Origin: Octopus vulgaris
Lineage: Eukaryota
Reading direction: 5' to 3'
Assembly: GCA_951406725.2 (NCBI GenBank)
Contig: OX597816.1
Location: 160,394,001 to 160,458,000 of the forward strand
Length of the DNA stretch: 64,000 bases
In this document: positions 3,701 to 57,098 of the stretch, piece by piece
Numbering within the stretch: the first letter of the stretch is position 1
How the letters are laid out: every line of letters starts with the position of its first letter
Notes under the pieces: generated by a model
Seen by the model: only the letters and a program-made list of their open reading frames with translations
Database searches by the model: none
Told to the model about the DNA's origin: nothing
Made by a program: the position numbers and the translations under genes

Positions 3701-3764
3701 TTGCACTGAAGAGTAAAAAGTGCATAATACTGCACCAATTACGAAATCACAGTGTGATATGCGG
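3701..3764 (+). ncRNA. Type I hammerhead ribozyme motif (intact core)
   Basis: ttgca-CTGAAGA-gtaa..gtgca/tgcac..ttac-GAAA-tcaca.g.tgtga-TA-tgcgg. All three stems pair; cleavage triplet AUA. Confidence 0.75.
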
Positions 3765-3894
3765 CTAAATTCTGTTTTTAAATGACCTGCTTCGAGAATT
3801 GTTTCGGTACAATGTGTTTATTTATTTTAGTAGTTTTGACTTTAAAAGTCCCTCCTAGCATGAGGCATCTATGTGTAATAGTGCCCTCTATATA

Positions 3895-3925
<31 letters not shown>

Positions 3926-4605
3926 GATAGATAGATAGATATATAAATGTGTGTGTGTGTACCTTTGTCTTAACATCATGTGAGGATTGTTAATAAGCAT
4001 CATAGTCTGACAAGCAATGTTGCCTCAACAAATTCCAGCGGACTCATGCAAGTGTTGGAAAACGATGAAGATGATGATGGTGGTAATGAAGAAGAACCCG
4101 TTTCTCTAATATTTCATTTATTTCAAATATATCTTCACACTGCAAACACCTGAATGCATTTATCTACATTTGAAGTATATATTTACATAATTCACACACA
4201 CACACACAAGTATATATAATTGCACATGTGTACACAAAGTGTGAGTCATACACTAATGTGTGTACTCTTGACATGTGTGTATGTAATCTATTTATTCACC
4301 CATCTGTAGCTACCCAGGTACATAATTAGTCTACATGAACATAAAGACCCGGTTCCTCCTCCTCCTCTTCTTCTCTAATACTTTTGCTTTATAATTGTTT
4401 ATGTAACTCATTATTTCTCTCTCACTTTCACACACACACACCACAAGGAAGTAAAGTTGTATCTGTGTATAAATGTACATATATAGTATATTTCTATGTG
4501 AATATATGTAATTGTGTATGTTTGTATATATTTGTGTGTGTGTATGTGTATATATATGTATATATGCATGTATATATATATATATGTATGCATGTATATA
4601 TATAT

Positions 4606-5560
4606 ACTAAAGGCCTCTCGCTCAGAGTAAAAGGCAGACTGTATGACGTATGTGTACGAACAGCCATGCTACATGGCAGTGAAACATGGGCCATGACTGC
4701 TGAGGACATGCGTAAGCTCGTGAGGAATGAAGCCAGTATGCTCCGATGGATGTGTAATGTCAGTGTACATACTCGACAGAGCGTTAGTACCTTGAGAGAA
4801 ATGTTGTACCTAAGAAGCATCAGTTGTGGTGTACAAGAGAGACGATTGCGCTGGTATGGTCATGTGGCGAGAATGGATGAAGATAGGTGTGTGAGAAAGT
4901 GCCAATCCCTAGCAGTTGAGGGAACCCATGGAAGAGGTAGACCCAGGAAAACCTGGGACGAGGTGGTGAAGCACGACCTTCGAACTTTAGGCCTCACTGA
5001 GGAAATGACCTGCGACCGAGACCTTTGGAAATATGCTGTACGTGAGAAGACCAGGCAGGACAAGTGAGCCCAGCCCACTTATGAATGCCTTTCCTCCCTT
5101 GGACACAAAGACCTGTTGAGGCAAGCGAAGTCGATATAGAACCTCATCCGACGACAGGCACCCATGCCAACCCCCTTTGCTTGCGAAGACATGTTGGGGC
5201 AAGCGAAATCGAAATCGAATTGAACCAGCCAGGATCCCTGGTCTGGTGGTACATAAAAAGCACTATCTGATTCGTGGCCGATGCCAGCGCCGCCTCGACT
5301 GGCTTCTGTGCCAGTGGCACGTAAAATACACCAATCCGACCATGGCCGTTGCCAGCCTCGCCTGGCACCTGTGTAGGTGGCATGTAAAAAGCACCCACTA
5401 CACTCATGGAGTGGTTGGCGTTAGGAAGGGCATCCAGCTGTAGAAACATTGCCAGATAAGACTGGATCCTGGTGCAGCCTTCTGGCTTCCCAGATCCCCG
5501 GTCGAACCGTCCAACCCATGCTAGCATGGAGAACGGACGTTAAATGATGATGATGATGAT
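4606..5560 (+). mobile_element. 5'-truncated RTE-clade LINE (ORF C-terminus, 3' UTR, (GAT)n tail)
   Basis: Open frame KGRLYDVCVRTAMLHGSETW...RRLRWYGHVARM...RGRPRKTWDEVV..DL, typical of the RTE C-terminus. Stop at 5067; tail GGACGTTAAA(TGA)n. Confidence 0.92.
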
Positions 5561-5699
5561 AATAATGGGAAGGTTTATGAAAATAAACAAAAGACGAAGG
5601 CAGGTGGAGTACAAACAAACAAATGTATTAGTATGGCGCTCAGGAATAGAAATAGAAATATATGTATGCATGTATATATATGTATATATATGTATGTAT

Positions 5700-5885
5700 G
5701 CTTAGCAGTACTTCGGCTGCCATTACATTCTGAGTTCAAATTCCGCCGAGGTCGACTTTACCTTTCATCCTTTTGGGGTCGAATAACTACCAGTTATGCA
5801 CTGGGTTGATGTAATCGACTTAATTCCTTTGTCTGTCCTTGTTTGTCCCCCCTATGTTTAGCCCTCTGTGGGCAATAAAGAAATA
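5700..5885 (+). mobile_element. tRNA-derived SINE family B (5'-truncated)
   Basis: GAGTTCAAATTCCGCCGAGGTCGACTTT.CCTTTCATCC core. Other copies near 1900, 2830, 14790, 25175, 29855, 37275 and 49350. Confidence 0.75.
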
Positions 5886-5938
<53 letters not shown>

Positions 5939-6455
5939 GTGATGATGTGAGTTTGATTCCTAGACTGGGCTGTGTGTTGTGTCCTTAAACAAGGCACTTT
6001 ATTTCATGTTTACTCCAGTTCGCTCAGCTGTAGAAATGAGTTGCAATATCACTGCTACAAAGCTATATTAGCCTTTGCCTTTTTCTCGGTCAACATCGGT
6101 GGCATAGAGAGGGGTGTTAGGTATGCATGGGTGACTTCTGATCTTCTACAAACAGCCTTGCTTTGTGCATAAGAGGGTAGCTTTGTAGTTATAATCCCAT
6201 GGTCATTTCTGTCCAAAAGGGGACTTTACCTTTTTTATAGGTTTGGTGATGCAAACAGGAAAAGTAAAACTCAAAACATGAGATTGTATAAATATTTTTT
6301 ATTAATATTTAGCAGAAGCAACTGAGTGACTCAAGGGCCAAGTGCTTCATGCATTAGCTCTTAGCTAGTACACACACACACATATATATATAACAGAAGA
6401 AAATGGAGATTGGGAAGTTAATAATTGTTTATTATTAATAGCAAATTAATCATCA

Positions 6456-6541
6456 TCCCTTACAGCTGTTTCAATTAATACTCAGTAAATATTTAGTAAA
6501 TATCAAATTGACATGACCTGAGCCTAATATCTTCAGAGGGA
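6456..6541 (-). ncRNA. Type I hammerhead ribozyme motif with long stem II
   Basis: Minus strand: tccct-CTGAAGA-tattaggctcag...ctgagtattaatt-GAAAC-agct-GTA-aggga. Palindromic stem III, triplet GUA. Confidence 0.75.
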
Positions 6542-7264
6542 AAAAAATATACCTTTGGATATTTTATGTGTTTATGGATTCATTATAGCAGACTGAAAAA
6601 TATGGTTTATGATTTATGATTTGTATTAGAGTAGGGAAATAGAATTAGAACAAGAAATGAATAAATTAAATGGAGATGATAGAGGAAATTTAAATATGAA
6701 TGAGGTAAGTTTATAGTTAATAAAAATGGCATATTCGTTTATAAGGTTATGAAAATAAAGTTATGAAAATTTGTATATATGCATATATATATATAGTCAA
6801 AACTATTGAAAAGGTGGCAAGACGCAACAAAAATTTTAGGAAAATAAAAATAAGAAAAATGTGGAAATTTTACCAGTGAGTGTGTTATATTATAAGGCAC
6901 AAAAAGAAAATGACTCTCCCCAGACATAACAGAATATAAATAAAGTTATGAAAATTTGTATTTATGCAAGTACGCATGTATACATTTACGCACATACATA
7001 TATGTATCCATATGTCCATCTATATACACAGACACATGTATATTCTCACACATATATACATCCACATGTACACATATATCTGTGCATATACATATATAAG
7101 TACATATACATGTACGAACACATTAATACATATGCACACTCACACATACATGTATGTGTGTGTATATATATATATGTATATAAAGTTAATCCAAACATGA
7201 AAACACAACAACGCGAGGACGTGGAACAAGTATAATGTTATTGGATGCTCAGGAAAGAAGGTGG

Positions 7265-7299
7265 GTTTAATGTTTCAAGCGGAGCTCTTCGTCAGAAAC
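7265..7299 (-). ncRNA. Minimal type I hammerhead motif (one mutation)
   Basis: Minus strand: gttt-CTGACGA-a-gagc.tcc.gctt-GAAAC-aTT-aaac. G16.2 appears mutated to A. Confidence 0.55.
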
Positions 7300-7959
7300 A
7301 TAGGAAAAGGAAAGATCCAAAGAAGGGAAGACGGAGGAAAAAATCGCCAACGGTACACACGCGGTCATATATATATATATGAATATATATATATATATAT
7401 ATGCGTCTACACTTTTTACCCATCACTCCTATATACACACACATACACACGCACATATAAAAAGACACATGCATAACTCACAAAAATATCTGTATTCTTA
7501 TGTATGTATGTATGTATATGCATTTGTGTGTGCAATTGTATGTGTGCAGGTATATGCATATGTGTACATAATTACGCTTAAATACATGCACATATACATA
7601 CATATATAAACCCATGTATATATTAGTTGTGTGAGCATATGTTTGCATGCACATTGTAGAGAGGGGAAAAGAGCCAGAGTTTATGGAAATAAACAACTCC
7701 AGCTACGGCCTCCATACACCTGCAGACATTACTAAGCTACCTCGTCTATTCACTTAGACAATATTATTCTTATACTTGCACCTATGTTTTACCATGTAAC
7801 ACCTTTATTTAGCATTAGCAACCATTAGCTACCTCTTCTGCATGCTTCCTTGCTCTTACACGGGTGTACTCAGGCGTGAAAGCCTTCACATGTACATCAC
7901 ACCAAACAGATCATCTGTCCATACATATTAATTACATTCTATCATTGGAAGTGGCCTGG

Positions 7960-8530
7960 CAGTCTGTCAGTCTGTCTGCATGTCTGCCTGTCGGTCTGTC
8001 TGTTGCACCTCCCTCTTTCTGTCTCTATCTTTCTCTCTTTTTGTGTCTCTTTCTTTCCCTCTAACTTTCTATCACTGTCTGCCTTTCTTTCCCTCCCGTC
8101 TCTCTCTCTCTGTTTGTCTCTTTCCCTTTATATGTGTGTCTCTCTCCTTCTGTGTGTGTGTGTGTGTCTCTCTCTCCCTCTGTGTGTGTGTATCTCTCCT
8201 TCTGTGTTTGTATCTCTCTCCTTCTGTGTGTGTATGTCTCTCCTTCTGTGTGTGTGTGTATCTCTCTCCCCCTTTGTGTGTGTATCTCTCTCCCCTCTCT
8301 GTGTGTGTCTTTCTTTCTCCCTGTGTGTCTCTCTCTCGCTCTCTTTCTCACCTCTGTCTTTCTGTACTACAGGACGTTTCTATCCTTGTGTGTGTGTGCG
8401 CGTGCGCCATTGTGTGTGTGTGTGTGTGTGTGTGTGTCTGTCTGTCTGTCTGTCTGTCCCTCTCTTCTCTGCCTGTTTGTCTGTCTGTCTCATTCTCTCT
8501 TCTCTCTCTCTCACTCACTCACTCACTCAT
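7960..8530. repeat. CT/GT low-complexity tract
   Basis: (CT)n/(GT)n mosaic; a similar tract lies at 9010-9385. Confidence 0.9.
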
Positions 8531-9732
8531 ATGTACCACAGGACAGATGTTACTAATAACCTAACCTTCATCCTAAGCAACAACAACAATAATAATAACA
8601 ACAACAACAACAACAACAACAAAGCCTGTCGGGGGTGGGGTTGGGGATGGATTAGAATAAAAGAGAAGACAAGAAAAGAAAACACGGGTGATAATGAGGT
8701 TTAGTGGCAATGAGGAACAGGTTTACTTCCTGTAATGAAATATTACGATCTTGTCGATGTTGTCGTCTGAGAGGCAAAAAAAAAGATCTGAACAAATTTC
8801 CACTGAGTTTTGTTTGTTTTCAATGTTAGTTAAAACACAAAGTAACCATATGTTTACAGCATCATTATCAAAGGTGCTGAAAAATAAACCACACATTTCA
8901 AGCAATTTGATCTTCTTTATATCTTCTGGAACTTTCTTTGGTCACTTTGTTACTTGTATGTTATTTTACTTATTTTTTTCTTAATGTTGTTATTTTTCAT
9001 CTCGGCTCCCTCCCTATCTGCCTCTCTCTCTCTCTCTCTCGGCTCCCTCTCTCTCTTTATGCACACTTAAACACCATCTGTCTGTCTATCTATCTATTTA
9101 TCTATCTATCTATCTACCTCTCTTTCTCACTCTCTCTATGTCTATATGCCTGTGTCTCTCTCTGTCTATCTATCTGCCTGTCTCTCTCTGTCTGTCTATC
9201 TGCCTGTCTCTCTCTGTCTGTCTGTCTATCTGCCTGTCTCTCTCTGTCTATCTATCTGCCTCTCTCTCTCTCTCTCTCTCTATACCTGCCTACATACCTG
9301 TCTGTCTATCTACCTCTCTCTCTCTCTCCCTCTCTCCCTATATCTATCTGTCTATCTGTCTATCTATTTACCTCTGTTTCTCTCAACCAGTACTGAAACT
9401 GACGCTCCATCAGTTATGATGACAAGGGTTCCAGTTGATCAGATGAATGGAAACAGCCTACTTGTGAAAACGTGCTAGTGGCTGAGTACTCCACAGACAC
9501 ACATACCCTTAACCTTTGTTCTCAATGAGATTCAGCTTGACACAAAATATAACAAGGCTGTCTCTTCGAATTACAAGTATGACTCCGTATGTAGACAGCT
9601 GAGCAGACTGGAGCAACATGAAATAAAGTGTCTTGCTCAAGGACACAGTGTACCAATGAGAATTGAACTCATGACCTTGTAATTGTGAGCCAAATAACCC
9701 TAACCACTAAGCCAACAACAACAATATTTTAT

Positions 9733-10103
9733 GGCTTTGTGGTAAGTAGCTTGTTTACCAACCACATGGTTCTGGGTTCAGTCCCACTGCGTGGCACTTT
9801 GAGCAAGTGTCTTCTACTATAGCCTCGGGCTGACCAAAGCCTTGTGAGTGGATATGGTTGACGGAAACTGAAAAAAAGCCCGTCGTATATATATATATAT
9901 ATATATATATATGCGTGTGTGTGTCTGTGTTTGCCCCCCTAGATGCTGGTATGTTTATGTCCCCGTTACTTAGCGGTTTGGCAAAAGAGACTGATGGAAT
10001 AAGTACTGGGAATACAAAAAGAATAAGTCCTGGGGTCGATTTCTTTGACTAAAAGGTGGTGCTCCAGCATGGCCACAGTAACACGATTGAAACAAGTAAA
10101 AGA
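9733..10103 (+). mobile_element. SINE family A
   Basis: Full head-microsatellite-tail structure. Confidence 0.85.
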
Positions 10104-10104
10104 A

Positions 10105-10138
<34 letters not shown>

Positions 10139-10625: not shown

Positions 10626-10660
<35 letters not shown>

Positions 10661-12344: not shown

Positions 12345-12384
<40 letters not shown>

Positions 12385-12609
12385 CATTATTATTATTATT
12401 ATTATCATCATCATTCTTCTTCTTATTATTATTATTTTGTGTTTTGTTTTATTTCTTTATTGGTTACTGGTTTTAATTTATGTTTTTGTTTCATAGTGGC
12501 TTACAAAATCTTTCTTTGCTTGAGTTGTCATATATATATAATGATGATGATATCATCATCATCATCATCATCAGTAGCAGCAGCATCACCATCATTATCC
12601 TCAATAGCA

Positions 12610-14192: not shown

Positions 14193-14241
<49 letters not shown>

Positions 14242-14371
14242 CCCACAAGTGTAAACAAGAGAGACAGAGAAAGGCAGAAACAAGGAAAATGCCACTTATA
14301 TTTGAACACTATACAAATATTCTTTTAAAAAAACTTTTCTTTTAATTTTTCTAAATTTAATTATTTAATCG

Positions 14372-14414
14372 TTACAGTTGATAAGGTTTCAAATGACTGA
14401 AACCGGTACTGAAA
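14372..14414 (+). ncRNA. Minimal type I hammerhead motif, U3:A8 core variant
   Basis: ttacag-TTGATAA-ggtttcaaatgact-GAAAC-cg-GTA-ctgaaa. A related copy lies at 56559-56600 on minus. Confidence 0.6.
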
Positions 14415-14530
14415 TGTTCTTTATAAAATTATTTTAGCATTTTCTATCTTGACTTGTTTTTTCATACATATCAACTTGTGTGTTCCTTTTCATCCTTATA
14501 CATACATATATATATATATATATATGTGTG

Positions 14531-16209: not shown

Positions 16210-16422
16210 CATATATATATAAGTAATACTAAGTAATTAAGGGTTTAGGTAACGAATTGCCTCACCAACACACCAAATTTAGAAATAGCAGTCAAAGAGA
16301 TATAGCTATTCCTTCTACTAAAAAGGGGGATCTCAGTAAAAACACAGCACTTAAAAGGCAAACACAGACAGGTAAGAAAGAAAGAATGAAATGACGGCAA
16401 TCCATCATGCAATTTTAAGTTA

Positions 16423-16514
16423 CCTACGGACGTACGTTTCGAGATCAAGTTTTAGGATATCATAAGAATTAGAAAATTCTACTTTACCCAGACTTCTTCT
16501 CTCATCGGCGCAGG
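16423..16514 (-). ncRNA. Type I hammerhead motif, C4 core variant, long stem II
   Basis: Minus strand: cctgcg-CCGATGA-gaga...tctc-GAAAC-gtac-GTC-cgtagg. Confidence 0.7.
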
Positions 16515-17129
16515 ATACTACAATTGTGAATAATTGTGAATTTCGTGGTACTGGTCATGCTTTGGCTCGCTCTGACACTGAGTTGAGATGATGCATTCTA
16601 GTATCTCAAAATTTAATATACAATTATTCACAATTGACTTGGTGTAATTGATAATTATCCCTAATTAATTAATTTCACCCTTTTTTTATTATTATTATAT
16701 ATATATATATATATGTATATATAATTATAAGCAAAACCCCTCCCCCGTCCAATGGACGGTGCTGGGTTATCAAACATTTAAAGCAAATTTTCTCAAAACA
16801 ACTTGTCTGACCGTCCCATAGGCTCCCCTTTGAGAAACACTGATTTAACCTAAATTTGAGACACCAGCAAAAGAAGAAATAAAGATAGACTTTTTTTCTA
16901 TTCCAAAAAAAAAACCCCGTTTTTATTCACACAAATATGCAACCGAAGAGTTTAAAGTACCAGTAATGATTGGGATATGATAATGATAATGATTGGGAGA
17001 ACACAAACATGGTTTAAATAGTAAGCTTGGCAGGAAACAAACGTGTCTTTAAGCAGTACAAAAACAACAAAAAAATGGAAGGTGCAGTTATGTACAGGTT
17101 GATGGAAGAAAAGCAGGACAAAAACGGCT

Positions 17130-21994: not shown

Positions 21995-23119
21995 GGACAT
22001 ATATGGATTTAAGTGGATATGTATGCTTGTATCTCAAAACATCCGTGTGTATGTGAATGTGTTTGTTCATCTATGTATGTAATATGTATGTGCTCCAGCA
22101 TGGCTGCAGTCAAATGACTGAAACAAGTAAAAGAATACACATGCATGCAATGTGTGTGTGTGTGCATATATATATATGTATATATATATACACTTATATA
22201 TATATATGCATATATAGATACATACGCACATACATGTATGTATATATGTAGATATATAACTCTGTGTGCATATGTATATGCATATAAACACATAGACACA
22301 CATACACATTGAGCAACATACACACACACACATAAGTGAGAAGAGGAAGGCTGTTTTGATTGGTGCCAGTAGCCAAAGTATGGCAGATATCAAGGCAAAT
22401 GGCAACGGTTGACTTTTTGTCAGTCGTTAGAGTCGTTAAAGGTAGTCAAAGTGGTCAGTGTCTAATTAGTGTTTAATATCAAGGTCCTCATTTGGGTGTC
22501 ACACCTCTGTAGTTTAGCCACCATAAAGGTTTCTAGAAAGTTCTCTCTTGTCACATGTTAGCTGTTGTTTCGCTATATGTAATTATGTGTGTGTGTGTGT
22601 GTATCTATATGTATTTGTATGTATGTATGTATGTATGTATGTGTGTTTTGTATTTGCATGTGTGTGTGTTTGTGTATGTGTGTGTATATCATCATTTAAC
22701 GTCTGCTGTCCATACTGGCATGGGTGTGTGGATATATGTATATGTGTATTTATATGTACGTATGTTTGTATGTGTGTGTGTGTGTACATGTATATGTATT
22801 GTTGTATCTATGTGTATCTGTATGCATATGCATATGTGCCAACACATATATGAATGTATACATGTCTCTGTAGGTATGTATATAATGTAGGTGTGTAATG
22901 TATGTTGCATGTTATGTGTATGTATATATATATATGTGTGTATATGGATGTATTTTTTATAATTATGTATATATAATGTATGTATATATTTGTACTAATG
23001 TGTATACTTATGTCTATAAGTTTAAGAGCATCATATTAATGTGTGTTTGGGTGCATCCTTATTCTTATATGACTGTATTTGTTTGTGTGTGTGTTTGTGT
23101 TGTGTAATTATTGCAGTTT

Positions 23120-26315: not shown

Positions 26316-26444
26316 CTTTCTTTCTAATAACTAGGAATATATATTCATTCTGCTATTTCCCTATATACTCCTTATTTGGTTCCTTTTCCAAAATAACTCC
26401 TTATATTGAACTCTGATATTCCCTTCTATTTAACCATCTCACAT

Positions 26445-26485
26445 CATCACTGATGAAGGGATATCCCAGAAACAGCTGTAAGACT
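26445..26485 (+). ncRNA. Type I hammerhead motif (stem I degenerate)
   Basis: CTGATGA-a-ggg.atat.ccc-a-GAAAC-agct-GTA. Stem I is poorly paired. Confidence 0.55.
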
Positions 26486-26809
26486 AACTTTCTCTTTATA
26501 AATGTCAGAAAAAATTCCACACAGCCTCTCTGTTGTCTTATTTTATTTAATGTATACATATATATGTGTGTGTGTGTGTATATATATGTATGTGTGTTTG
26601 TGTATGCATGTGTGCTTTGTAGTTCAGAAATTTGCTTCTTAGTCCCAGTGTTTCAGGTTCAAACCCCTGGAATGGCATCTTGAGCAAATCTCCTCGGGCT
26701 AACTTCAGCTTTGTGAGTGGATATAGTTGGTGGAAATTGAAATAACCCTAGAATGTGTGTATGTGTGTATAGTGTGTGTGTCTGGAGACACATGTTTATG
26801 TATATATTC

Positions 26810-28109: not shown

Positions 28110-28461
28110 TTTTTTTTTCTTTCTAGTTTCAGCTCAGAGCTGCGGCCATGCTGATGCACCGCCGTTTTGTGCTACACTGTTATTACGACGAACCTCGTCT
28201 AATATGTGGCACTTGGTGAAGAATGGAGTTTGATATAGCTACTCTCATTTGCACCTCTTGCCGTGAGGTAGGTTCATCTGGGACTCTTGACAGGAAGATG
28301 TCCAGCTTTGATTTAAAAACTGCTACATCTACTTTGTGCAAGTTCCTCAGACTCTTTGGGAGAATATTAAAAAGCTGTGGGCCCTTGAAACCCAGGCTGA
28401 TGCAGAAGCTGGTCCTGAAGCGTGATGGCATTGCTAGGATCTTTGGCACTATGCAGTGTCG
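28110..28461 (-). mobile_element. CR1/L2-group LINE 3' end
   Basis: RTSFCISLGFKGPQLFNILPKSLRN...FKSKLDIFLSRVPDEP, stop, then tail GGCGGTGCATCAGCATGGCCGCAGCTCTGAGCTGAAAC and an A-rich end. Confidence 0.85.
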
Positions 28462-28857
28462 TATTTGGAAGATCTTGGAGGGTTTAGCTCCCAATTTTGG
28501 AATTGACAGCTTTATCAATTCTTGAACTGGACAGCACTGCATCATACAAAAGATCCCGTCTTCCCCATCTAAAATAAGGACACAGTACTGCAATAGTCTG
28601 GGTTTCAAGGGCCTGCTATTGTTCAATACCCTTCTCAGGCAACCTTAGAGATCTACATGGTGTTGATGTGGAAGTTTTCAAGGAATGTCTGGACAGGTTT
28701 CTGTCTTAGATACCAGATGAACCCACATCTGCAGGAAATGCAAAGAGGAGCAGCTCTGTCCAGCTCGATACTTCATCAAAAACAATACTGGAGACAACAC
28801 CAAGTAACTACTGGTGGTGCACCAGCATAACCTCAGCCCTGGGCTGAAACCAGTAAA
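28462..28857 (+). mobile_element. Second, more decayed CR1/L2-group LINE 3' end in opposite orientation
   Basis: IWKILEGLAPNFGI...YCNSLGFKG..LFN...FKECLDRFLS*IPDEP with stops and frameshifts, and a homologous tail. Confidence 0.8.
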
Positions 28858-31970: not shown

Positions 31971-32207
31971 CCCATCCACACATGCACGCGCACACACACA
32001 CACACACCCATCACACACTTTCTGTATATTTTGTCATTGTATTCACTGCGGTGTTTATTTTGACCATATCGCACGGGCAGCTGTTAAGCGTGCATTTTAA
32101 GCTGGTCGTGTGCATACATGCATATATATGTATGTATGGGCATTCGTGTATGTAAGTATAACATATGTTCCATATATATATATATATATCTGTATTTATG
32201 TGCTTAT

Positions 32208-32277
32208 CTGGTATATTCAACTGATGAAGGCAGAGCTTCTATGCAAAGTCAGAAATCCAGGATCTTGAATTATCCAG
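32208..32277 (+). ncRNA. Type I hammerhead motif with extended stem I
   Basis: ctggtatattcaa-CTGATGA-aggc...gtca-GAAA-tcc.a.gg-ATC-ttgaattatccag. Triplet AUC. Confidence 0.7.
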
Positions 32278-32907
32278 AAAAATCTTTTTTGTAGTTTATT
32301 TTGTCTATCTCTAGTGCTATATGAACATTTGATGTGGCCTTAGGGTCAGGGTTTTGACTGCTATTTCAGCATGGTGGTATTTCCCAGATACCCTAATTTA
32401 TAGTTTATATATATATATATATATATACATACATATGTTAATTGATGATGATGATAATAAAAATAAATGAGTAACAGATGTTACACATTTATATTTTACT
32501 CACCTACACTGGAATCTGCACTTCGGATGTATTTGGAAAGTATCTTTATATAAAGTACGTCTGAACAAACGAGAGCAGACTTATTCACTAAGTTGGATCA
32601 TGCCATCTGCATACACTGGAAGAATAATTGGTGCAGAAAATTCTATGTAGTGTTTGATATTCACCTAATATTATCTGAGTGTGTAAATTAGTTCGTCCTA
32701 ACAAGATGTCTCAATTAAAGTACCTAATTCAACTGAATCTAAATTACATGGGGTGTAGACAGACAGCCGACAACTGATGAAGGGTCATTCTTTGTATTAC
32801 TTATCCTTTTTATTCTCTCGTTATTTGCATATTTGTTTTCGTATTTCATGTTGTTTACTGTTGGTGATGTCCTGTACCCATATATATATATATATATATA
32901 TAAATAG

Positions 32908-32957: not shown

Positions 32958-32959
32958 TT

Positions 32960-33815: not shown

Positions 33816-34268
33816 CCCTTTTGTTACCAACCTGACTGAAACTGGCTCTGGCTCTGTAGTACAAATGTCTTGTTTTCATAAGTTTTGAATTAAAATCATC
33901 CACCAAAACTTAGTCACAATTAATGTTCCTAACACTAGCTTAATGATAGCTAAGTTATTTTACTAAATTCTTTGTTATATTTAAAATTGATTAAAAGAAA
34001 TACAAAGTATCTCAACTGAAATCTGGTAATGAAAGGGTTAACAAATGATTAATTTAACCCTTTTGATACCAACCTGGTTGAAACTGCCTGTGGTTTGTAG
34101 TACAAATGTCTTGTTTTCATAAGTTTGGAATTATAATCTTCCACCAAACCTTACTCACAATTTATGTTCCTAACACTAGCTTAATGATAACTGAATAATT
34201 TTACTAAATTTTTTGTTATATTTAAAATTATTTGAAAGAGCATCTCAAAATAAATGCAATAATGAAAA
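33816..34268 (-). mobile_element. Two adjacent piggyBac-type MITEs (family 1)
   Basis: 33816-34037 is complete with TTAA TSDs; the second starts at 34058. Confidence 0.85.
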
Positions 34269-38379: not shown

Positions 38380-38850
38380 TGTAAAATAAAACTTTACATA
38401 TATAAATATAAATAACGTGAAATACACGAAGGGACGAACATAAAAAACAGACGGGTCATTCAAAGCCTTCATTCTTCAGTCAGAAACCGATTCATCATTG
38501 CAAATTTCGGCTGTGGCCTGCTCGCTTAGCCACCGGGATGGCGTCATTCGAAGGCTAAAACAATGCGAACGCATTGTGACCAGCGATGTGTAACTACATC
38601 TGATGGACTGGTCAGTCACGTGATGGTGACGTGATATATATATATGTGTGTGTGTGTGTATTGGTTCCCACCACCATCACTTGATAACCGATGTTGGCTT
38701 GTTTACATCTCTGTAATCTAGCGGTTTGGCAAAAGAGACTGATAGAATTAGTACTAGGCTTACAAAGAATAAGTCCTGGTGGGGTTAATTTGTTCGACTG
38801 AAGCCAGTGCTCCAGCCTGACCACAGTCAAATGACTGAAGAAAATAAGAG
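38178..38850 (+). mobile_element. SINE family A split by insertions in its (TA)n tract
   Basis: Head 38178-38330 and tail 38650-38850, with two foreign fragments between. Confidence 0.7.
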
Positions 38851-40490: not shown

Positions 40491-40551
40491 CATCTATCTC
40501 TTTTGTGGCATATCTTACCACCTATACATTTCCCCAAGGTGGGGCAGTATA

Positions 40552-40619
40552 TATCTATAGCTGTTTCTTCTAACCACTCTGACAACAAAGTATATATTTT
40601 AGAAACCTTATCAGTGACC
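40552..40619 (-). ncRNA. Decayed hammerhead motif (GAAAC-AGCT family)
   Basis: Minus strand: CTGATAA-ggtttctaa...ttagaa-GAAAC-agct-ATA, with two apparent G-to-A changes. Confidence 0.4.
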
Positions 40620-41333: not shown

Positions 41334-41373
<40 letters not shown>

Positions 41374-41383
41374 TTTATTTAAA

Positions 41384-41467
41384 GAGTTTCACGTTCCCGT
41401 TCGTCGGACAGTTTTTGTTAACAATAACTGTCCCATGAACGGGAACGTGAAACTCCGAGTAACAGGT
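41384..41467. ncRNA. Inverted pair of hammerhead motifs forming a palindrome
   Basis: Plus: aactgt-CCCATGA-acg.ggaa.cgt-GAAAC-tccga-GTA-acaggtt. Minus: aactgt-CCGACGA-acgggaacgt-GAAACtc (truncated). Confidence 0.6.
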
Positions 41468-41563
41468 TTTGTTGAATTTCTGCTGCTTTTAAATAAAGCA
41501 TATTACTCTACCCCTGGTATTTGAGTTCTTTTCCACTTTGTTTCACATTTATGTGTTTACTCC

Positions 41564-41598
<35 letters not shown>

Positions 41599-46857: not shown

Positions 46858-47661
46858 TAATTGATTTACCCACTCACCCGAAATTGCATTGTGCTACGAT
46901 TTGAAACCATTGTGCTATTAATAATATTTAGTAAATAAATAAGAGATTCAAAATATGCAATAAAAGTAGTTCTATAACTTAGATATTATCAAAACCTCAT
47001 GCTTAACATATGTGTATTGTTTAAATGCCAGAAGCTGCAGTTTTTTGACTGGGAATCATCCCTTTAAAGATGTATTGTAAGGTGAAATAAATTTGTCTGA
47101 AAAGTAACAACTAGAATTACATACACAGAATTTCTCCATAATTGCAGCTTATTGCTGTCACACATTTATTCATATACTATTTAAAATTAGCAGGGTTTGA
47201 ATTTGTCTTTCTTTTGTTAAAATAAATACCAGTGGTGTATTGAGGTAAATTGGTTGCTATCTGTTGTCTTCTTCAACAATTTGGTCTTGTGCCTGAGTAA
47301 AAATATCAATAGAGTCCATATTAAGAAAACACCAATTCATATTCCATTTCCTTGACTAAGATATTTAATTCCAAGCTGTTCATTCATCAAACTGCTGATA
47401 GGAACCATAATGGTTGGCACACAAGTGGGAGTACCACACCACTTCCTTTTATTGACACTTAACATAATATTAACAATATAGTTTCCAACTAGCAATAACC
47501 ATGCCTCGGATAACCCTCATTGGCTATGGTACCGCCTCTGTGCTGAGTCCAAATTTTCCTTTTGATATTGCACAAAATAATAGGAAATCATTTCAACTTT
47601 TTTTTTTATAAGTTAGTATAAAATAAGGAAGTATGATACCCAAGATCTCTGTAGATCTTTT

Positions 47662-49148: not shown

Positions 49149-49754
49149 AATTATTGTACTTTGAGGCTCCATAGCCTTCGACATTTTGGTCTCCCATCCA
49201 TAATATGGCCATATTAGATACAGGGCAATTTTTGGATATATTTGAAAATAGAGAATACATGTCTTATACACTGGCAAGTACAGTAAATATTTCATTGTAT
49301 AATTGCTGCTTTGCTGTATGTGTTGTGGTATGTTTGAGCAAATGTTGTGTGTTTGAACAAACAGTAAAGTGCAGTGCCAGGTATTTCATGTTACTAGATC
49401 TAGTTCATTGTATTTTGTATATGAGTTCAAATCTCTTCAAATTTGACTTTTATTTTTTTAATCCTCCTGGGGCCAATGAACTTACCACCTACCAGTTCTA
49501 AACCTGAAATCGAACTGACCAACTCTCAAAACAAATAACAATTAGCCTTCTACCTAATCACTAGAAATCAATATTTTTGTTATGTTTTATATATGTTTGT
49601 TATTATTATTTATCTTTTGTATTGTTTCTATCATGATACTAATTAGCTATATTTGTTTCCTTTGTTACACTAATTAGATGTATGTCCTTACTTGAGGACT
49701 GACTCATCCCCTTGTGTCCTAATCCGAAATTTCTCTCTTTTTCAGTGGTCAGTA

Positions 49755-49858
49755 ATGGAAGAGCAGGTGTATGCTTATGTTTTGTTCTTCTTTGGATTAA
49801 TTGGTTTAATAATCTATTTCTTCACTGCCTTTGCCCTGATGGTGTCCTTGTTCAGTGG
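49755..49858 (+). CDS. UGCG: Ceramide glucosyltransferase, first coding exon (N-terminal TM helix)
   Basis: ATG at 49755 gives MEEQVYAYVLFFFGLIGLIIYFFTAFALMVSLFS-G, a hydrophobic TM segment. It ends GG|gtaagt (phase 2), which joins in frame to the 52261 exon. A polypyrimidine acceptor (ttctctctttttcag) ends at 49745, implying an upstream exon. Missed by the ORF track. Confidence 0.85.
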
Positions 49859-50106
49859 GTAAGTTGGTGTCTTTTCTGAAACATTTCTTTACTGTTTTCT
49901 AATCAATTCCAAAGCAAACCTAAACTGTCCAATCATTGAATGGATGGCCTGACAGAACTAAATAATTGGCTGTCATTTGATATACATGGTGTCTGTAAAT
50001 TATCCTTACTATTTGAAAAATTCAGAGAGATAAAATAAAGATAACTTCGCAGAATTTATTGGAAAATGTAGGCAAACAAATAAAGTTTCATTAGAAACAT
50101 CAGGTG

Positions 50107-50690
50107 CTCCCTGACTGGCTTCTATGCCAGTGGTACATAAAAAGCATTATCTGAATGTGGCTGATACCAGTACCTCCTGACTGGCTCTTGTGCCGGTGGC
50201 ATGTAAAAAGTACCATCTAAATGTGACCGATGCCAGTACCCCCTGGCTGGCTCCTGTGCCAGTGGCACATAAAAAGCACCATCCGAATGTGGCCGATGCT
50301 AGTATCCCCTGACTGGCTCTTGTGCCAGTGGCACATAAAAAGCACCATCTGAATGTGGCCAATGCCAATATCTCCTGACTGGCTCTCATTCCAGTGGCAC
50401 GTAAAAAGCACCATCCGAATGTGGTCAATGCTAGTACCCAATGACTGACTCTCATACTAGTGGGTGTAAAAAGCAGCATCCAAACATGGCTGATGCCAGG
50501 CCTGCCTGACTGGCTCCTGTGCTGGTGGCACATAAAATGCACCCACTACAATCTTGGATTGGTTGGCTTTAGGAAGGGTATCCAGCTGTAGAAACCTTGT
50601 GAGATCATATTGGAGCCTGGTGCAGCCGCTGGCTCTCCAGACTTCAGTCAAACTGTCCAACCCATGCCAGCATGGAAAATGGATGTAAAA
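50107..50690 (+). mobile_element. RTE 3' UTR fragment with 7 tandem 66-bp units (UGCG intron)
   Basis: Units start at 50111, 50177, 50243, 50309, 50375, 50441 and 50506, then the canonical tail. Confidence 0.85.
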
Positions 50691-50814
50691 GGAGGGAGAG
50701 GAGAACACATTCATCTGGGCTCCATTGATTGCATGTGACCTGCTGAGTTATCCTTTTTTTTTCTTAATTTTTCAAATTGTAATTGTAATTTATAGATGAC
50801 CTGTGTGTGTGTGG

Positions 50815-51200
50815 GTTCTTTATTTGTTTTGGTCAATGGACTGTGGCCATGTTGGGGCACTGCCATGAAGGGTTTAATTGAACAAATCAACTCCAGTACT
50901 TATTTTTTTAAAGTCTTGTATATATTTTATCAGTCTCTTATGCTGAACCAGTTGGTTGCAGGAATATAAACAAACCAACACCAGCTGTCAAGTAGTGGGT
51001 GTGTGGTAACAATCACACACGCACACACACATACATTTTTCAGGTTTCCACTCAGGTTTTGTCTACAAAGTTTACTCACAAGGTATTGGTTGACCCAGGG
51101 TTAAAGCAGAAGACACTAGCACAAGGTACCATGCAGTGGGACTGAACCTGAAACCTTGTGGTTTCAAAGGAAGCTTCTAAACCATACAGCTATGCCTGCA
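50815..51200 (-). mobile_element. SINE family A (older copy)
   Basis: Head and tail are recognisable. Confidence 0.7.
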
Positions 51201-51238
51201 GCAGCTTAAACTTTAGTTTCAATTTGCCCCTACGTTAA

Positions 51239-51912
51239 CCCTTTAGGTACCAACCTACCTGGAACTGACCCTGATTCTATGATAAAAACTTCTCGTTTTA
51301 AAGTGATCTAAATCAGTGGTTCCCAAAGTGGGTGGTACCCCACTGGGGGCAGTGGAAAGATCCAGTGGGGTGTTGAAGAGAAATGGGGTGATAATGGGGT
51401 AACCAAAACGGGGCAATGGATGTAAAAAAAAAGACAAAACAAAATAAAAGGTTCGTTAAGTTTTATTTGTGAAATTCTGTTGTTTTGAATTTGCTGCAGA
51501 AAATGGTCTATCACTGTGATGGTGAGTGTGGGCGTAGGGCACATAGGAATGTGGCCTTAGAACCAAAGGGGCGGCACCCTGAAAAAGTCTGGGAACCACT
51601 GATCTAAATTAAAATTTTTTCTCAAAATTTTATGTTAATTTATGTTACAAACACCAGCATAATAATGACTCTTATTTTATTAAATTCATCGTTATTTTAA
51701 AAATTAACTGAAACAAAGGCAGTGCATTTCCACAGAAATATGGTAACAAAAGGGTTAAAGTGATCTAAATTAAAACTTTCCATCAAAAATTTATGTTAAT
51801 TTATGTCATAAGTACTGGCATAATAAAGACTGTTAGATACCTCTTTATTTTAAAAATTAATTACAAAAAAAAAATGGCTGTGTATTTCAATAAAAATATC
51901 CTAACAAAAGGG
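51239..51912 (-). mobile_element. piggyBac-type MITE (interrupted by hAT MITE) plus partial second copy
   Basis: TTAA-CCCTTT at 51235; AAAGGG-TTAA ends at 51754 and 51912. Confidence 0.75.
51314..51601. mobile_element. hAT (Charlie/Buster-type) MITE
   Basis: TIR CAGTGGTTCCCA / TGGGAACCACTG; perfect 8-bp TSD ATCTAAAT with central TA. Confidence 0.9.
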
Positions 51913-52260
51913 TTAAGAAATGGTGGTGTTGAGTGGAGAAGCTCATTTTAAGCTCATTGCCTATAAATCTGTACTGGCTCAAGGTAATGGCAACTTTGAT
52001 AAACATCAAAGGTTACTGCAATGCTGGAGTATACACTGTTGTTTGTTTGGAATTAAAATATGATAGAAATTTCCTGGGAAGGTGATTATAATCAATATCA
52101 AGCAACAACCTGGTTCAGGCATTTAAGAAAAATTTTAAATCTTCTGTAGATGGTTTTAGGTTTTTCAGTTTATTTTATGTATTGGTTTAAATACCATTGA
52201 TGAGGTATTGATTTTGGATCGTTATAATGTCTCGTTTACATCCCTTTCTTTCTATGTCAG

Positions 52261-52402
52261 CCGCCTTTGTTTATACCAACAAACAAACCCACTGTTAGAG
52301 CATGACGAACTGCCTGGAGTATCTGTGATTAAACCATTGATGGGAGTTGATCCGCTTCTGGAGGAGAACATAGAGAGTCACTTCAAAATATGTTACCCAC
52401 AG
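52261..52402 (+). CDS. UGCG: Ceramide glucosyltransferase, second coding exon
   Basis: Acceptor tttctttctatgtcag|, donor CAG|gtaggt. The 142 nt encode RLCLYQQTNPLLEHDELPGVSVIKPLMGVDPLLEENIESHFKICYPQ, matching the UGCG motif LPGVS-I/L-KPL-GVDP-L--N-E--F---YP. Later exons were not found in the window. Confidence 0.92.
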
Positions 52403-52949
52403 GTAGGTAGAATTACTTTCATTTGCTTTTGGGACATTTCCAATCTCAAACATTGCCAACATAAGGATGTACACATATGCATGTGTGTGTATGTGTGTGT
52501 GTGTGTGTGTGTGAGTGTGTATGTGATCATCATCATCATCATCATTTAATGTCTTGTTTTCCATGCTCCCATGGGTCAGACAATTTGTTGAGGCAGATTT
52601 ACTATGGCTGGATGCTTTTTCTGTCACCAACCCTTACCTGTTTCCAAGATAAGGATGGACACATATGCATACATGCACACACACATATACATGTGTGTGT
52701 GTATGGTGTGTATCATCATCATCATCATCATATGTCTTCTTTTCCATGCTCCCATGGGTTGGACAGAATTTGTTGAGGCAGATTTTCTATGGCTGGATGT
52801 CCTTCCTATTGCCAGTCTTCACTTGTTTCCAGGTAATGTAATATGTCCCATGGCCAAGACATGTTTTCCACAGAAGACTGGAAACAAACAACATTGCTTG
52901 TATGATGGTGATGTCAAGACATGAATACACATTTACACACACAGGCATA

Positions 52950-53165
52950 TGTTTAGCTGTCCTCTCACCTGTTTAGTTATCCTCTCACTAGTTTAGTTGT
53001 CTTTTCACCTGTTTGTTTGTCTTCTAACCTGTTTGTCCTCTCACTTGTTGGATTTTCCTTTCACCTATTTCGTTATCCTCACCTGCCTAGTTGTTTTCTT
53101 GTCTGTTTGTCTTCTCACCTATTAGTTTGTCCTCTCACCTGTCTAACAGTCCTCTTACCTGTTAG
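52950..53165 (+). repeat. ~20-bp minisatellite TTGTCCTCTCACCTGTTTAG
   Basis: About 10 degenerate units. Confidence 0.75.
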
Positions 53166-53399
53166 TTCATGCTCTTGCTGTCCAACTTGGTCACCCATTC
53201 TCTCTTAAAATATTTTATGCAAGTAAGGTAAACCATACAAAGTGTGAGGACAGAGCTGTTTGCAGAGTTCTTGGTAAGCTTAATCTGTGATACATTTTCT
53301 GCATCACTGATTAAGATACCTGATTAAAGATGATTATGGTTAAAGATTATGTAAATATTTTCATATGAAACAATGCAAGACCACAACCCTGTAAAAAAG

Positions 53400-53722
53400 G
53401 AGCACTTCGTTGGTTACAACGACGAGGGTCCCAGCTGATCCGATCAACGGAACAGCTTGCTCATGAAATTATTGTGCAAGTGGCTGAGCACTCCACAGAC
53501 ACGTGTATCTTTAATGTAGTTCTTGGGGAGATTCAGCATGACACAGAGTGTGACAAGGCAGCCCTTTGAAATACAGGTACTACTCATTTTTGCCAGCTGA
53601 GTGGACTGGAGCAATGTGAAATAAAGTGTCTTGCTCAAGGACACAATGTGTCACCAGAAATTGAACTCATGACCTTACGATCATGAGCTGAATGCCCTAA
53701 CCACTAAGCCACGTGCCTTCAC
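53400..53722 (-). mobile_element. SINE family D (CORE-like central domain)
   Basis: tRNA head plus TGTGTCCTTGAGCAAGACACTTTATTTCAC..CTCCAGTCCACTCAGCTG. Copies also at 9400-9715, 34570-34865, 46365-46680 and 57520-58352. Confidence 0.85.
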
Positions 53723-54114
53723 AGAATATTTGTATAAAACCCTATCTTGTACCATTCATGACATGCCTTAACTTCTTAATAAATAGTTATCAGCTGTTTG
53801 TTTCATTCAAAAACATTATTCATTCTCATTAAAAATATTGTCTACACCAGTGCACTTACTCTAAGCGTGACTCTCAAATTCATATTACTGTGAAACATGA
53901 ATCACACAGGGATTGTTCATTCATCTACAGGTGCACACTTGTCAGTGTGTGTGTGTGTGTGTGAATGTTCATCAGATCTACATCATTTGTTTCTTTTAAA
54001 GACCTTTTATATATAATTTGATGATTTTTAAGTTTAGAAAATTTTTTCCTCAAAAACACACACGTACACACACACACACACTCCTTCTTGTAGAAGAGCA
54101 TAGGCATGGAATTT

Positions 54115-54325
54115 CTTTTTTATTCTTTTACTTGTTTTAGTCATTTGACTGGCTATTCTGGAGCACCGCCTTTAGTCAAACAAATCAGCCCCAGGACTTA
54201 TTCTTTGTAAGCCTAGTACTTATTCTATTGGTCTCTTTTTGCCGAACTGCTAAGTTATGGTGATGTAAACACACCAACATCGGTTGTCAAGTGAGGGGGG
54301 GGGAACAAACACAGACACACACATT

Positions 54326-54366
<41 letters not shown>

Positions 54367-54485
54367 GGGCTTCTTTCAGTTTCCACCTACCAAATCCACT
54401 CAAAAGACTTTGGTCAGCCTGAGACTCTATGAGAAGACAGTTGGCCAAGGTGCTATGCAGAGGGACTGAACTTAGAACCATGTGG
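54115..54485 (-). mobile_element. SINE family A
   Basis: Tail, microsatellite and most of the head. Confidence 0.8.
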
Positions 54486-56237
54486 AAATATAGTGCTCAA
54501 GAACTTCAGTTTGAACAATCTTCATCATGTTTCATTCTTAGATACTTTTATTAAATTCATTCAGTTGTTAAAAATAAATAAATCTTGGAATTAAATGGTT
54601 TTGATTTACTGTCAGGTGACTTTTGGCCAGCTCTGTATGTATGTGTGTATGTGTGTGTTTGTGTATAGTTTTGATCTTTTAAAATCTAAAATCCCTTTTT
54701 CTTAAGATTCCACCACATACTTTATGTACTCGTCAGTGTCTCTGCACTCTCATAGACACTACTTTCCAGACTAATGAAATCCCAAAGCTTCTCTCTCTTC
54801 GTACCTCTAGGAACCACAACAGCTGTTCATGGTCTTCAGCTGTCTTCTGTTGTTCTACTGCATGCCTGTCACCATTAGAATATTGGTTCTAAAGTGTTGA
54901 GTAAGAGTAATAATAATTTTTTATGATTGAAATAAAACTGGAATCTTTCAAGTAGACAATAAACTGAATGGTTAGTTACTCATGGCAACAGCACTAATAA
55001 AACCATTGACACCACCACCACCATCACCACATATATATGTGTATATGTATCTGTGTATGGATATATCTGTGTGTGTGTCTTTGTGTTTATCTCTCACCAC
55101 TGCTTTACATTCCCATAAGCTGGTATGGGTAGACACTTTGATGGGATCTGATGGGTCCAAGGACTGCATTGTACCCCTGCTGTCTGCTTTAGTTTCTACA
55201 GCTGGATGCCCTTCCTGACACCAACCACTTTACTGTGTGTAATGAATGCATTTTTGTTTTTTGCATGCTACTGGTCCTAGTAAGGTTGCTATGGAGATCA
55301 CAAAACTACAAATCCAGGGTAGGGTGAGGAGATGTGTGATTTAAATATGAAAGAAGAGAGGGAATGGCTAGCAGGTTCTTGTGGTTGAGGAGTTACATGG
55401 TTACACACCATTTGGCAAGTGGTACTAGATATCTTTGTACGCAGACTTTAAAAACATGTTCCTCATTTTAAAGACAAGTGGGAATTTGTGGAGAAAGATC
55501 CAAGCAGTTACTTTGTGCAAGTGAAGTGATTATATTCCGGTTCCAATTATCAGCTTCTTGTTAAAGAGAATATTCGCTATAGTGTTGAATGATGGTTCAA
55601 TGGATGTAGACATGATGGTGGTGATGCTGGGGATGGTGACAGTGGTGGTGGTGATGATGGTTGGTGATGGTGGTGGATTTAGTGTTAATGATTGTGGTGA
55701 TGATGATAATTATCACAGTTCTTCTTGTTGTTCCATTTTCATTCCAGTTATGTTCCAAGATGAATAGCCATTATTAATTCTTTTAAATGATATTGTTTTC
55801 CCCTGTGTAAAAACCTTCAACAGTATCACCTTTTGAGCAAGTGTCGAAAGCAAGGACACTTTCAAATTTCTTGATTTCATTTTACCATGTTTTTGATACA
55901 CACACACACACACATATGCACACACACATAATAGACAGGCCTAAGGCAGAGAAATATGCTACAAGGGAAGCCAATCTTCTCTAACGAACTCTTTGATGTA
56001 ACAGAGTCGATGCTGGGATGTGTTTTTATTTTGTTATCGTTCAGTAAACAAAGCTGACCTGGGAGCGAAGGCGTCATGGCTTTTAGGGAAAGCAATGCAA
56101 AGACGGAATTAAATGAGTGTAAACAAGTGACAAGTGTCTGAACAGATGAATTAGAGGGTTTGGTTAGAAGAAGGAAAGAAGAGAAGGGGAACTTGCTCAT
56201 TCCAGTTAAAGAGCTCTCTCTGCTATATAGAATGTGT

Positions 56238-56281
<44 letters not shown>

Positions 56282-56558
56282 ACACACACACACACACACA
56301 CACATATATGTATTGATAATAAGGAGAGTGAAGAATTTGAACATTCAAACTATATAAACAGGAAGTTTGAATGTTCACATTCCTCATTCTCCATATTATC
56401 AATGTTGTACTTTACATGCTAAGTAGCCAGGAAAAAAGTGTGAAATTGGATCGGAATTAAAGGAAATATATATATATTTATAAAAATTCGTGCTGCATCT
56501 CATTTATATGGAAAAAAAAGTCAGGGTAGAAAATGCTAAAATAATTTTATAAAAAACA

Positions 56559-56600
56559 TTTCAGTGCCGGTTTCAGTCATTGAGACATTTTCAACTGTAA
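56559..56600 (-). ncRNA. Hammerhead motif, U3:A8 family (decayed)
   Basis: Minus strand: ttacag-TTGAAAA-t.gtc.tcaat.gac.t-GAAAC-cg-GCA-ctgaaa. Same element as 14330-14470. Confidence 0.45.
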
Positions 56601-56713
56601 GTATGGAAAACAATTAAATTTTGGAAAAATTAAAAGTAAAGTTTTTTTAAAGAATATTTGCATCGTATTCAAATACAAGGGGCATTTTCCTTGTTTCAGC
56701 CTGTCTCTGTCTC

Positions 56714-56808
<95 letters not shown>

Positions 56809-57007
56809 AATAGATGTGTGTAGTTTTCCCTTGTTAACAATTAACACAGAAAAAATAGATAAATAATTACCAGAGTAGCAAAAAATCACACAAGAGGTTG
56901 TAACTCCTTGTTTTTAAAGGTAGAAACTCCAGGTTTACGTGAAATATTTTGTATAATATATATAAATAAATAAATTGTGTTAAACGCAGGTGTTGTTCAA
57001 ATTCTTT

Positions 57008-57098
57008 TACTTCTGAAGATATGTTTCGAAGATATCACTGGTATTATTCCAAAGGAATAAAATGGTGTAAAACAATGTAATCTTCTCTTCAGGGAAAT
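57008..57098 (-). ncRNA. Decayed hammerhead motif
   Basis: Minus strand: CTGAAGA-gaagat...atcttc-GAAAC-atat. Stem II is perfect; cleavage site and stem I are degenerate. Confidence 0.4.

Follow-up and report, generated by a model that had tools for sequence, protein, structure and literature searches.

The 64,000-nucleotide (nt) stretch of the Octopus vulgaris genome analysed here (GenBank assembly GCA_951406725.2, contig OX597816.1, forward-strand positions 160,394,001 to 160,458,000), referred to as the window, is animal DNA with 38% GC that is rich in microsatellites. A sequence-only reading of the window had flagged about ten type I hammerhead ribozymes at eleven sites. Hammerhead-shaped motifs are present at nine of these sites. 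Five of them pass the full descriptor, which demands UH and GAAA in addition to the core, both stem I and stem II, and a stem III that is a perfect palindrome; four are damaged or partial. The two other sites, flagged at 40552 and 57008, failed and are unconfirmed. The nine motifs are probably the 3' ends, or pseudo-long-terminal-repeat (pLTR) tails, of several families of Penelope-like elements (PLEs), derived from 5'-truncated insertions that are mostly dead. Motifs are named by the start position of their core and strand, and all coordinates refer to the window. A motif is called intact if it passes the sequence descriptor; its cleavage at NUH is only predicted.

3701-3764, plus strand: type I hammerhead motif 3706, intact by descriptor, core CUGAAGA, predicted cut after 3759; stem I of 5 base pairs (bp), stem II of 4 bp with an inner hairpin, stem III a 13-nt palindrome.
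6456-6541, minus strand: type I hammerhead motif 6536, intact by descriptor, core CUGAAGA; stem I of 5 bp, U.U at 10.1/11.1, a long stem II, an 8-nt palindrome.
7265-7299, minus strand: motif 7295, a classic minimal PLE hammerhead, damaged; exact core, an A bulge following A9, loop III absent, only stems I and II of the three formed, the stem III palindrome with one change, reading ACAU.
14372-14414, plus strand: hammerhead motif 14378, first copy of the U3-A8 family, intact by descriptor, core UUGAUAA; stem I with only 3 contiguous bp, stem III a 6-nt palindrome.
16423-16514, minus strand: hammerhead motif 16508, intact by descriptor, core CCGAUGA (U4C, at 16507), predicted cut after 16429; stem I of 6 bp, stem II of 4 bp with a long extension (61-nt hairpin), an 8-nt palindrome.
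26445-26485, plus strand: partial hammerhead 26450; exact core, stem II (A.A at its base), an 8-nt palindrome, stem I unformed.
32215-32270, plus strand: type I hammerhead motif 32221, intact by descriptor, core CUGAUGA; stem I of 6 bp, A.A at 10.1/11.1, a 9-nt palindrome.
41384-41411, minus strand: inverted partial copy of 41432, core CCGACGA, ending inside stem III.
41428-41465, plus strand: Hydra-type hammerhead 41432, damaged, core CCCAUGA (C4 plus G5-to-C); stem I of 4 bp, stem II of 3 bp, stem III a 9-nt palindrome.
56559-56600, minus strand: motif 56594, second copy of the U3-A8 family, damaged by U16.1 to C; stems I and II only.
40550-40619, minus strand: doubtful site 40614, not accepted; C3.A8 mismatch in the core, stem III imperfect, stem I absent.
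57008-57097, minus strand: doubtful site 57092, not accepted; core, 6-bp stem II and GAAA, no palindromic stem III, no stem I.

The CUGANGA core, which had been ascribed to all eleven sites, occurs at six (3706, 6536, 7295, 26450, 32221 and 57092) and not at the other five. The exact core combined with GAAA and NUH is found at 3706, 6536, 32221, 26450 and 7295; the combination is broken at 41432 (G5) and 56594 (U16.1). A three-helix test, in which the motif ends in stem I, was passed by 3706, 6536, 16508, 32221 and 41432, and by 14378 with its 3-bp stem I, and stem I is missing from 26450, 40614 and 57092. Most of the sites are not the minimal hammerheads they had been called, since their stems III are 6-13 nt long.

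The motif count is above that of dinucleotide-shuffled sequence. A strict descriptor gave three matches in the window and a mean of 0.00 in local dinucleotide shuffles, none of the 150 reaching the real count, and a descriptor admitting variant cores gave five against a mean of 0.03, with none of 150 shuffles reaching five. When stem I was left out, the two counts were 4 against 0.05 and 6 against 0.23. The descriptor was tuned with the sites already in view, and the shuffle figures are therefore generous. Because of this, decoy cores searched in the real sequence are the fairer control: 539 decoys gave a mean of 0.002 matches and a maximum of 1, compared with 3 for the true core. Among 35 structure-only matches with any core, three carry exactly CTGANGA and five are within two changes of it, where about 4% would be expected.

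It is highly improbable that the motifs arose by chance within repeats rich in hairpins, such as miniature inverted-repeat transposable elements (MITEs), tails of short interspersed elements (SINEs) or 3' stem-loops of long interspersed elements (LINEs), with no ribozyme ancestry. The decoy and structure-only results argue against it, as do layouts near-identical to those of published PLE hammerheads and two U3-A8 copies whose cores differ solely at N7, the free position. For 3706, 6536, 16508, 32221 and 41432, the explanation by chance is largely refuted. The post hoc descriptor and the two failed sites count in its favour, together with motif 14378, which shares a 15-mer with a SINE-like tail and can adopt another fold of greater stability. 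The Rfam check suggested in the sequence-only reading also speaks for chance and against ribozyme ancestry: no hammerhead was matched in the window at the gathering threshold, none was among the best 150 of 230 matches ranked by E-value, and local scans of 3706, 16508 and 32221 returned none. The lack of an Rfam match lowers the status of the motifs as members of an Rfam family, and leaves their layout as it is.

All nine accepted motifs lie within stretches of 190-475 bp with (TA)n at both ends. At least four TA units within 300 nt on both sides were found for 9/9 accepted motifs and for 2/25 other CTGANGA sites (Fisher p 1e-6). The background of such two-sided flanking is 15%, and ten of the eleven originally flagged sites have it. 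The distance from the predicted cut to the 3' TA tract is 70-209 nt, and that from the core to the 5' TA tract is 32-247 nt. The bounded stretches are as follows.

3615-3900: (TA)n-bounded host stretch of motif 3706.
6392-6782: (TA)n-bounded host stretch of motif 6536.
7175-7366: (TA)n-bounded host stretch of motif 7295.
14241-14505: (TA)n-bounded host stretch of motif 14378.
16221-16695, minus strand: (TA)n-bounded element around 16508, with a 17-nt inverted repeat (16521-16537 / 16620-16636).
26345-26557: (TA)n-bounded host stretch of motif 26450.
32190-32405: (TA)n-bounded host stretch of motif 32221.
41373-41564: (TA)n-bounded host stretch of motif 41432.
56478-56716: (TA)n-bounded host stretch of motif 56594.

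Two of the nine elements contain 5' inversions (41384-41455 and 16521-16636). The element at 41373-41564 opens with an inverted repeat of 72 nt, within which the partial hammerhead lies. The 17-nt inverted repeat of the 16221-16695 element is read as the junction of an inverted 5' piece, and loose ends in public contigs are compatible with an inverted upstream piece. The inverted copy at 41384 stops midway through the palindrome of stem III, some 6 nt short of where the cut is predicted. We speculate from this single case that the end point might reflect copying from a cleaved RNA.

Motifs 14378 and 56594 belong to copies of one family, matching at 87% over 209 nt. The exact 15-mer at 14389-14403, which spans the GAAA and stem II of this U3-A8 family's hammerhead, recurs at 22110, 25926, 32977, 39986 and 57974. 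The repeat that shares it is an abundant SINE-like one, with the 15-mer in its 3' tail hairpin and without a 5' core. Directly downstream of the 56594 element, an imperfect 74-nt palindrome (78%) lies between TA tracts at 56312-56403.

The proposed link to Penelope-like elements is upheld by the layouts, which match published PLE hammerheads and in several cases are of the Hydra-clade type, by the (TA)n-bounded stretches and by the 5' inversions. Single minimal hammerheads dispersed in many families per metazoan genome were described by Cervera and de la Pena in 2014 and read as truncated PLEs; the hammerheads have a bulge after A9, a palindromic stem III and a U3-A8 variant, and show low activity even as dimers (PMC4209133). 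Motif 7295 fits this minimal consensus with its bulge after A9, the U3-A8 cores of 14378 and 56594 are those given for families 3 and 4 of S. mansoni, and palindromic stems III and neighbouring motifs on opposite strands are shared as well. The window differs in that stem III of most motifs is longer than the minimal form, and the 56 rows of Fig. S3 in that paper include neither a cephalopod nor a C4 core (PMC4209133). Penelope is counted among the abundant repeat families of cephalopods (PMC8967140), and 235 Rfam hammerhead matches were given for the giant squid genome (PMC6962438).

Some of the motifs probably originate from the Hydra clade of PLEs, with membership judged by resemblance and not by formal placement. 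According to File S1 of Craig et al. 2021, (TA)n is preferred by 26 of 27 Hydra families, including Hydra-1_Obim of Octopus bimaculoides, and a 5' inverted copy of Penelope-13_HM carries its hammerhead (PMC8557442). The features shared with this clade are a type I hammerhead on the sense strand close to the 3' end, a long palindromic stem III, (TA)n, U.U at the base of stem II, a 5' inverted copy and the occurrence of the clade in O. bimaculoides. Stem III of 41432 (ACTC-c-GAGT) is identical to that of Hydra-1/2_aJap and its stem I (CTGT/ACAG) is as in Hydra-2_aMil, while stems I and III of 6536 resemble those of Penelope-1_NV, also of the Hydra clade (PMC8557442). The 26 Hydra hammerhead rows of File S2 all have CTGA cores and stems III of 9 or 10 nt, and 14 of the 26 have U.U at 10.1/11.1. 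The Hydra-type 9-nt palindrome is present in 41432 and 32221 and closely approached in 6536; the lengths in 3706, 16508, 26450, 14378 and 7295 are different. Insertion into (TA)n is not specific to the clade, because Naiad and other PLEs share the preference (PMC8557442).

Several results weigh against an origin of the motifs from PLEs. The hammerhead of Hydra-1_Obim is unlike all nine motifs of the window, and neither A.A at 10.1/11.1 nor a stem III of 8 or 13 nt occurs in the 26 Hydra rows; C4 cores and stems II of 57-61 nt likewise fall outside them (PMC8557442). A comparison of eight short window motifs with the supplement of the same study gave no hammerhead match and one chance match in coding DNA. 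No reverse transcriptase or GIY-YIG open reading frame (ORF), which the sequence-only reading had suggested looking for beside the motifs, was found in the window: Pfam searches of 27 frames around the sites gave no relevant match (one weak, irrelevant), and a window-wide regular-expression scan for PLE protein motifs gave matches at chance level only. A KPYSLGKR-like frame upstream of 57092 resembles by eye the endonuclease end of Hydra elements; it had no protein matches and was not used. The hammerhead fold is never the minimum-energy fold at the eight sites computed, lying 3-15 kcal/mol higher. Multi-copy status was seen in two of about eight families, the two being the only ones tested.

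Folding z-scores against shuffles, from -2.5 to +0.9, do not separate the sites. Stem III could be closed in a monomer at 3706, 32221 and 41432. A dimeric hammerhead was never the cofold minimum, and these energies omit the inner hairpins and are uninformative.

Hydra-clade membership requires an ORF with a reverse transcriptase (RWK and DKT motifs) and, at its C terminus, a GIY-YIG lacking CCHH, and most of the fragments end before such an ORF would start. By our reading, the hammerheads of Hydra consensus sequences sit near the 3' end, roughly at least 130 nt behind the stop codon (PMC8557442), and therefore most of the window fragments do not extend far enough to include any of the ORF. The fragments carry no ORF, unlike full Hydra-clade PLEs. 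Because no remnant of a reverse transcriptase or GIY-YIG adjoins any motif, the link to PLE ORFs is one of architecture only.

The motifs, their (TA)n flanks, the inversions, the repeated state of two families and the C4 majority in aligned contigs are observations; parent elements with ORFs, cleavage and the following route of insertion are inferred. In the PLE transcript, the hammerhead would lie 50-250 nt away from the 3' end. The GIY-YIG endonuclease of the element would nick a (TA)n tract, and the reverse transcriptase would copy the RNA from near its 3' end by target priming. An early stop of copying, sometimes leaving an inverted 5' piece, would insert only the non-coding tail with the hammerhead. 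The inserted copies would then decay, giving the damaged sites. The motifs look, and likely work, like PLE hammerheads. In the parent element, the hammerhead would cleave behind NUH at a slow rate, either in dimeric form or helped by the protein of the element. The dimer model of cleavage is summarised in a review (PMC6765202), and Frangieh et al. 2024 reported that the hammerhead of a Poseidon PLE cleaves only with the element's protein, and that insertion in vitro was unimpaired in mutants of its core (PMC11167929). Most of the dispersed copies are predicted to be inert, and cleavage is probably needless for the spread.

As the main rival reading, the bounded stretches could be short non-autonomous elements, either solo retrozyme monomers or SINE-like derivatives of PLEs, whose transcripts would be cut by the hammerhead and might become circular, with the elements moved in trans by PLE proteins; we consider this unlikely, though less so than the explanation by chance. 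Retrozymes consist of tandem units with monomers of 150-450 bp (PMC7229834), a range that the units of the window overlap, and the preprint of Li et al. 2026 describes solo monomers as common and retrozymes as derived from PLE pLTRs (10.64898/2026.07.22.740005). The window motifs resemble those of non-LTR retrozymes in being type I hammerheads in a low-GC non-coding unit of a few hundred bases (PMC7229834). The two U3-A8 copies begin at nearly the same point after the 5' TA tract, and the family of 16508 is present in high copy, both as would suit such elements. The layouts, however, are of the PLE type and not the canonical 6-bp/4-bp type I, and 5' inversions are a mark of PLE insertion. The depth of aligned contigs drops about 9- to 35-fold from the 3' half of 16508 to its core, which fits 5' truncation or subfamily divergence. 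Unlike non-LTR retrozymes, no motif has a tandem copy within the window, in which no tandem pLTR-ORF-pLTR arrangement was seen either, and the retrozyme link drawn in the sequence-only reading is not borne out here.

The 16508 family was followed in public contigs. Contigs of four of 24 listed runs were aligned to the 679-bp interval 16222-16900: X1 (organism A, possibly the source of the window itself), X12 (also organism A), X4 (organism B) and X8 (organism D). X12 is RNA by guess, and it was not used for or against expression. The numbers of aligned contigs, 4958 in X1, 3256 in X4, 973 in X8 and 441 in X12, include those of a second repeat at 16737-16900. The summed depth over the 16508 hammerhead is about 2e4-7e5 in X1 and X4, where single-locus contigs have tens; the figure is rough and not a copy number. 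The depth indicates hundreds to thousands of copies of the family. Copies that align at the core contribute only 3-11% of the depth that the hammerhead's 3' half has.

The C at core position 4 (C4) is the majority letter among the aligned copies of the 16508 family, a share that may be inflated by alignment to the window's own letter. The canonical U4 accounts for 17% of the depth at 16507 in X1, 32% in X4, 34% in X8 and 21% in X12, and a loose end in X12 belongs to a sibling of 16508 with the canonical CTGAAGA core. Since few copies reach the core in alignment, C4 marks a subfamily of the 16508 family. Decay of CpG dinucleotides was considered as the source of the U4 minority and rejected, because of the six CpG sites in the hammerhead only 16507 changes at 10% or more. 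Stems I and III are without a variant at that level. In the stem II extension, four of five variant sites are predicted to be unpaired (p 0.035, weak, as the sites are not independent), and no compensatory pair changes were seen within a family. C4 is also found in both copies at 41384/41432, a sequence unrelated to 16508.

The U4C change is known from a natural viroid, in which it lowers activity in vitro and infectivity is kept; Perreault et al. 2011 mention it together with U3-A8 and U.U at 10.1/11.1 (PMC3088659). Here, the same change is the majority letter in the aligned copies of a high-copy genomic subfamily, and it recurs in a second family. If cleavage is not needed for spread, this would explain the high copy number of the C4 subfamily. 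Several octopus species have this family with U4 as well as C4 in the core, and it thereby offers a natural comparison of core strength and spread that bears on the role of hammerheads in PLEs.

The window holds nine accepted motifs per 64 kb, which looks above the 2,000-9,000 hammerheads per genome in PMC4209133; the window was chosen for this finding. Scaling to a genome of 2-3 Gb yields about 3e5 motifs, an upper bound because of that choice. A broader proposal, which we regard as possible and rather doubtful, is that octopus genomes hold about 10^5 PLE-type hammerheads missed by Rfam, and that C4 is a recurrent natural variant with which PLE-derived subfamilies multiplied independently in more than one octopus species. 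If so, the amplification of C4 would be genomic evidence that PLEs spread without needing hammerhead cleavage or with its activity tuned down, or else that a protein-assisted or dimeric hammerhead tolerates C4.

The "hidden layer" of hammerheads announced by the sequence-only reading consists of real motifs, and its novelty was overstated, because dispersed PLE-type hammerheads in many families per genome have been published (PMC4209133; PMC7229834). The pairing of hammerheads with PLE tails is likewise on record; the kind is known, and the new detail, C4, is modest. Literature searches turned up no earlier description of these motifs from octopus, nor any of C4 in PLE hammerheads; Lunse et al. 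2017, probably the largest survey of such hammerhead variants and outside our comparison, could list them. A hammerhead tail bounded by (TA)n is a practical marker by which some of the octopus repeats that are still unclassified can be assigned to PLE families.

Two further features lie beside the 16508 element. At 16637-16698 on the plus strand, loose ends of public contigs before 16637 resemble the 3' portion of a different hammerhead core whose stem II is short, and this interval may thus belong, as a tail, to one more hammerhead family that borders on the 16508 element. The repeat at 16737-16900 and beyond is a separate, very high-copy one behind a TA tract, with a depth of up to about 1e6 in X1 and X4.

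Pattern scans outside the window gave 2 viral and 39 metagenome loci of the ACAGCTGT type, none of the 41 having stem I of at least 4 and stem II of at least 3, and none of 76 viral loci of the ACTCnGAGT type passed. Two metagenome contigs resembling animal DNA (L022 and L025) contain a hammerhead-like sequence at 4001-4036, in which stem III is the same 8-nt one and stem I starts from a G.A mismatch at its base; a six-frame Pfam search of L025 gave no domain.

The window also contains part of a gene and two more half-cores.

49746-49860, plus strand: exon of ceramide glucosyltransferase, found by tblastn near 49746.
52262-52402, plus strand: exon of ceramide glucosyltransferase.
32704-32878, plus strand: TA-adjacent stretch with a CTGANGA half-core, no downstream GAAA stem.
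38380-38635, minus strand: TA-adjacent stretch with a CTGANGA half-core, no downstream GAAA stem.

The 46-residue exon at 52262-52399 has 100% identity to ceramide glucosyltransferase of Octopus bimaculoides and 91% to that of Argonauta; later exons were not found within the window. The 56594 element is likely intronic and antisense to this gene. Some copies might be active ribozymes kept by the host to cut octopus transcripts, which is about as improbable as a chance origin. Five motifs are intact by descriptor, and 3706 can close stem III as a monomer. Nevertheless, the accepted motifs show no strand bias (five plus, four minus), four of nine are damaged, the sole accepted site in a recognised gene region, 56594, is antisense and broken, and PLE hammerheads cleave poorly alone (PMC4209133).

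Rfam gave nothing meaningful at either half-core stretch, including the TA-bounded half-core 38479. A 254-bp unit beginning TTAACCC is repeated in 2.9 tandem copies at 2096-2820, with a dispersed inverted copy at 33884-34093, and carries no hammerhead; it resembles a piggyBac-type MITE. The frames at 4609-5067 (plus strand) and 28183-28644 (minus strand) had no Pfam match and resemble C-terminal remnants of LINE reverse transcriptases. The SINE, RTE-like and piggyBac-like labels of other repeats in the window are tentative. A truncated copy of U4 small nuclear RNA at 47467-47549 (minus strand), scoring 62 bits and thus above the Rfam gathering score, is probably a pseudogene.

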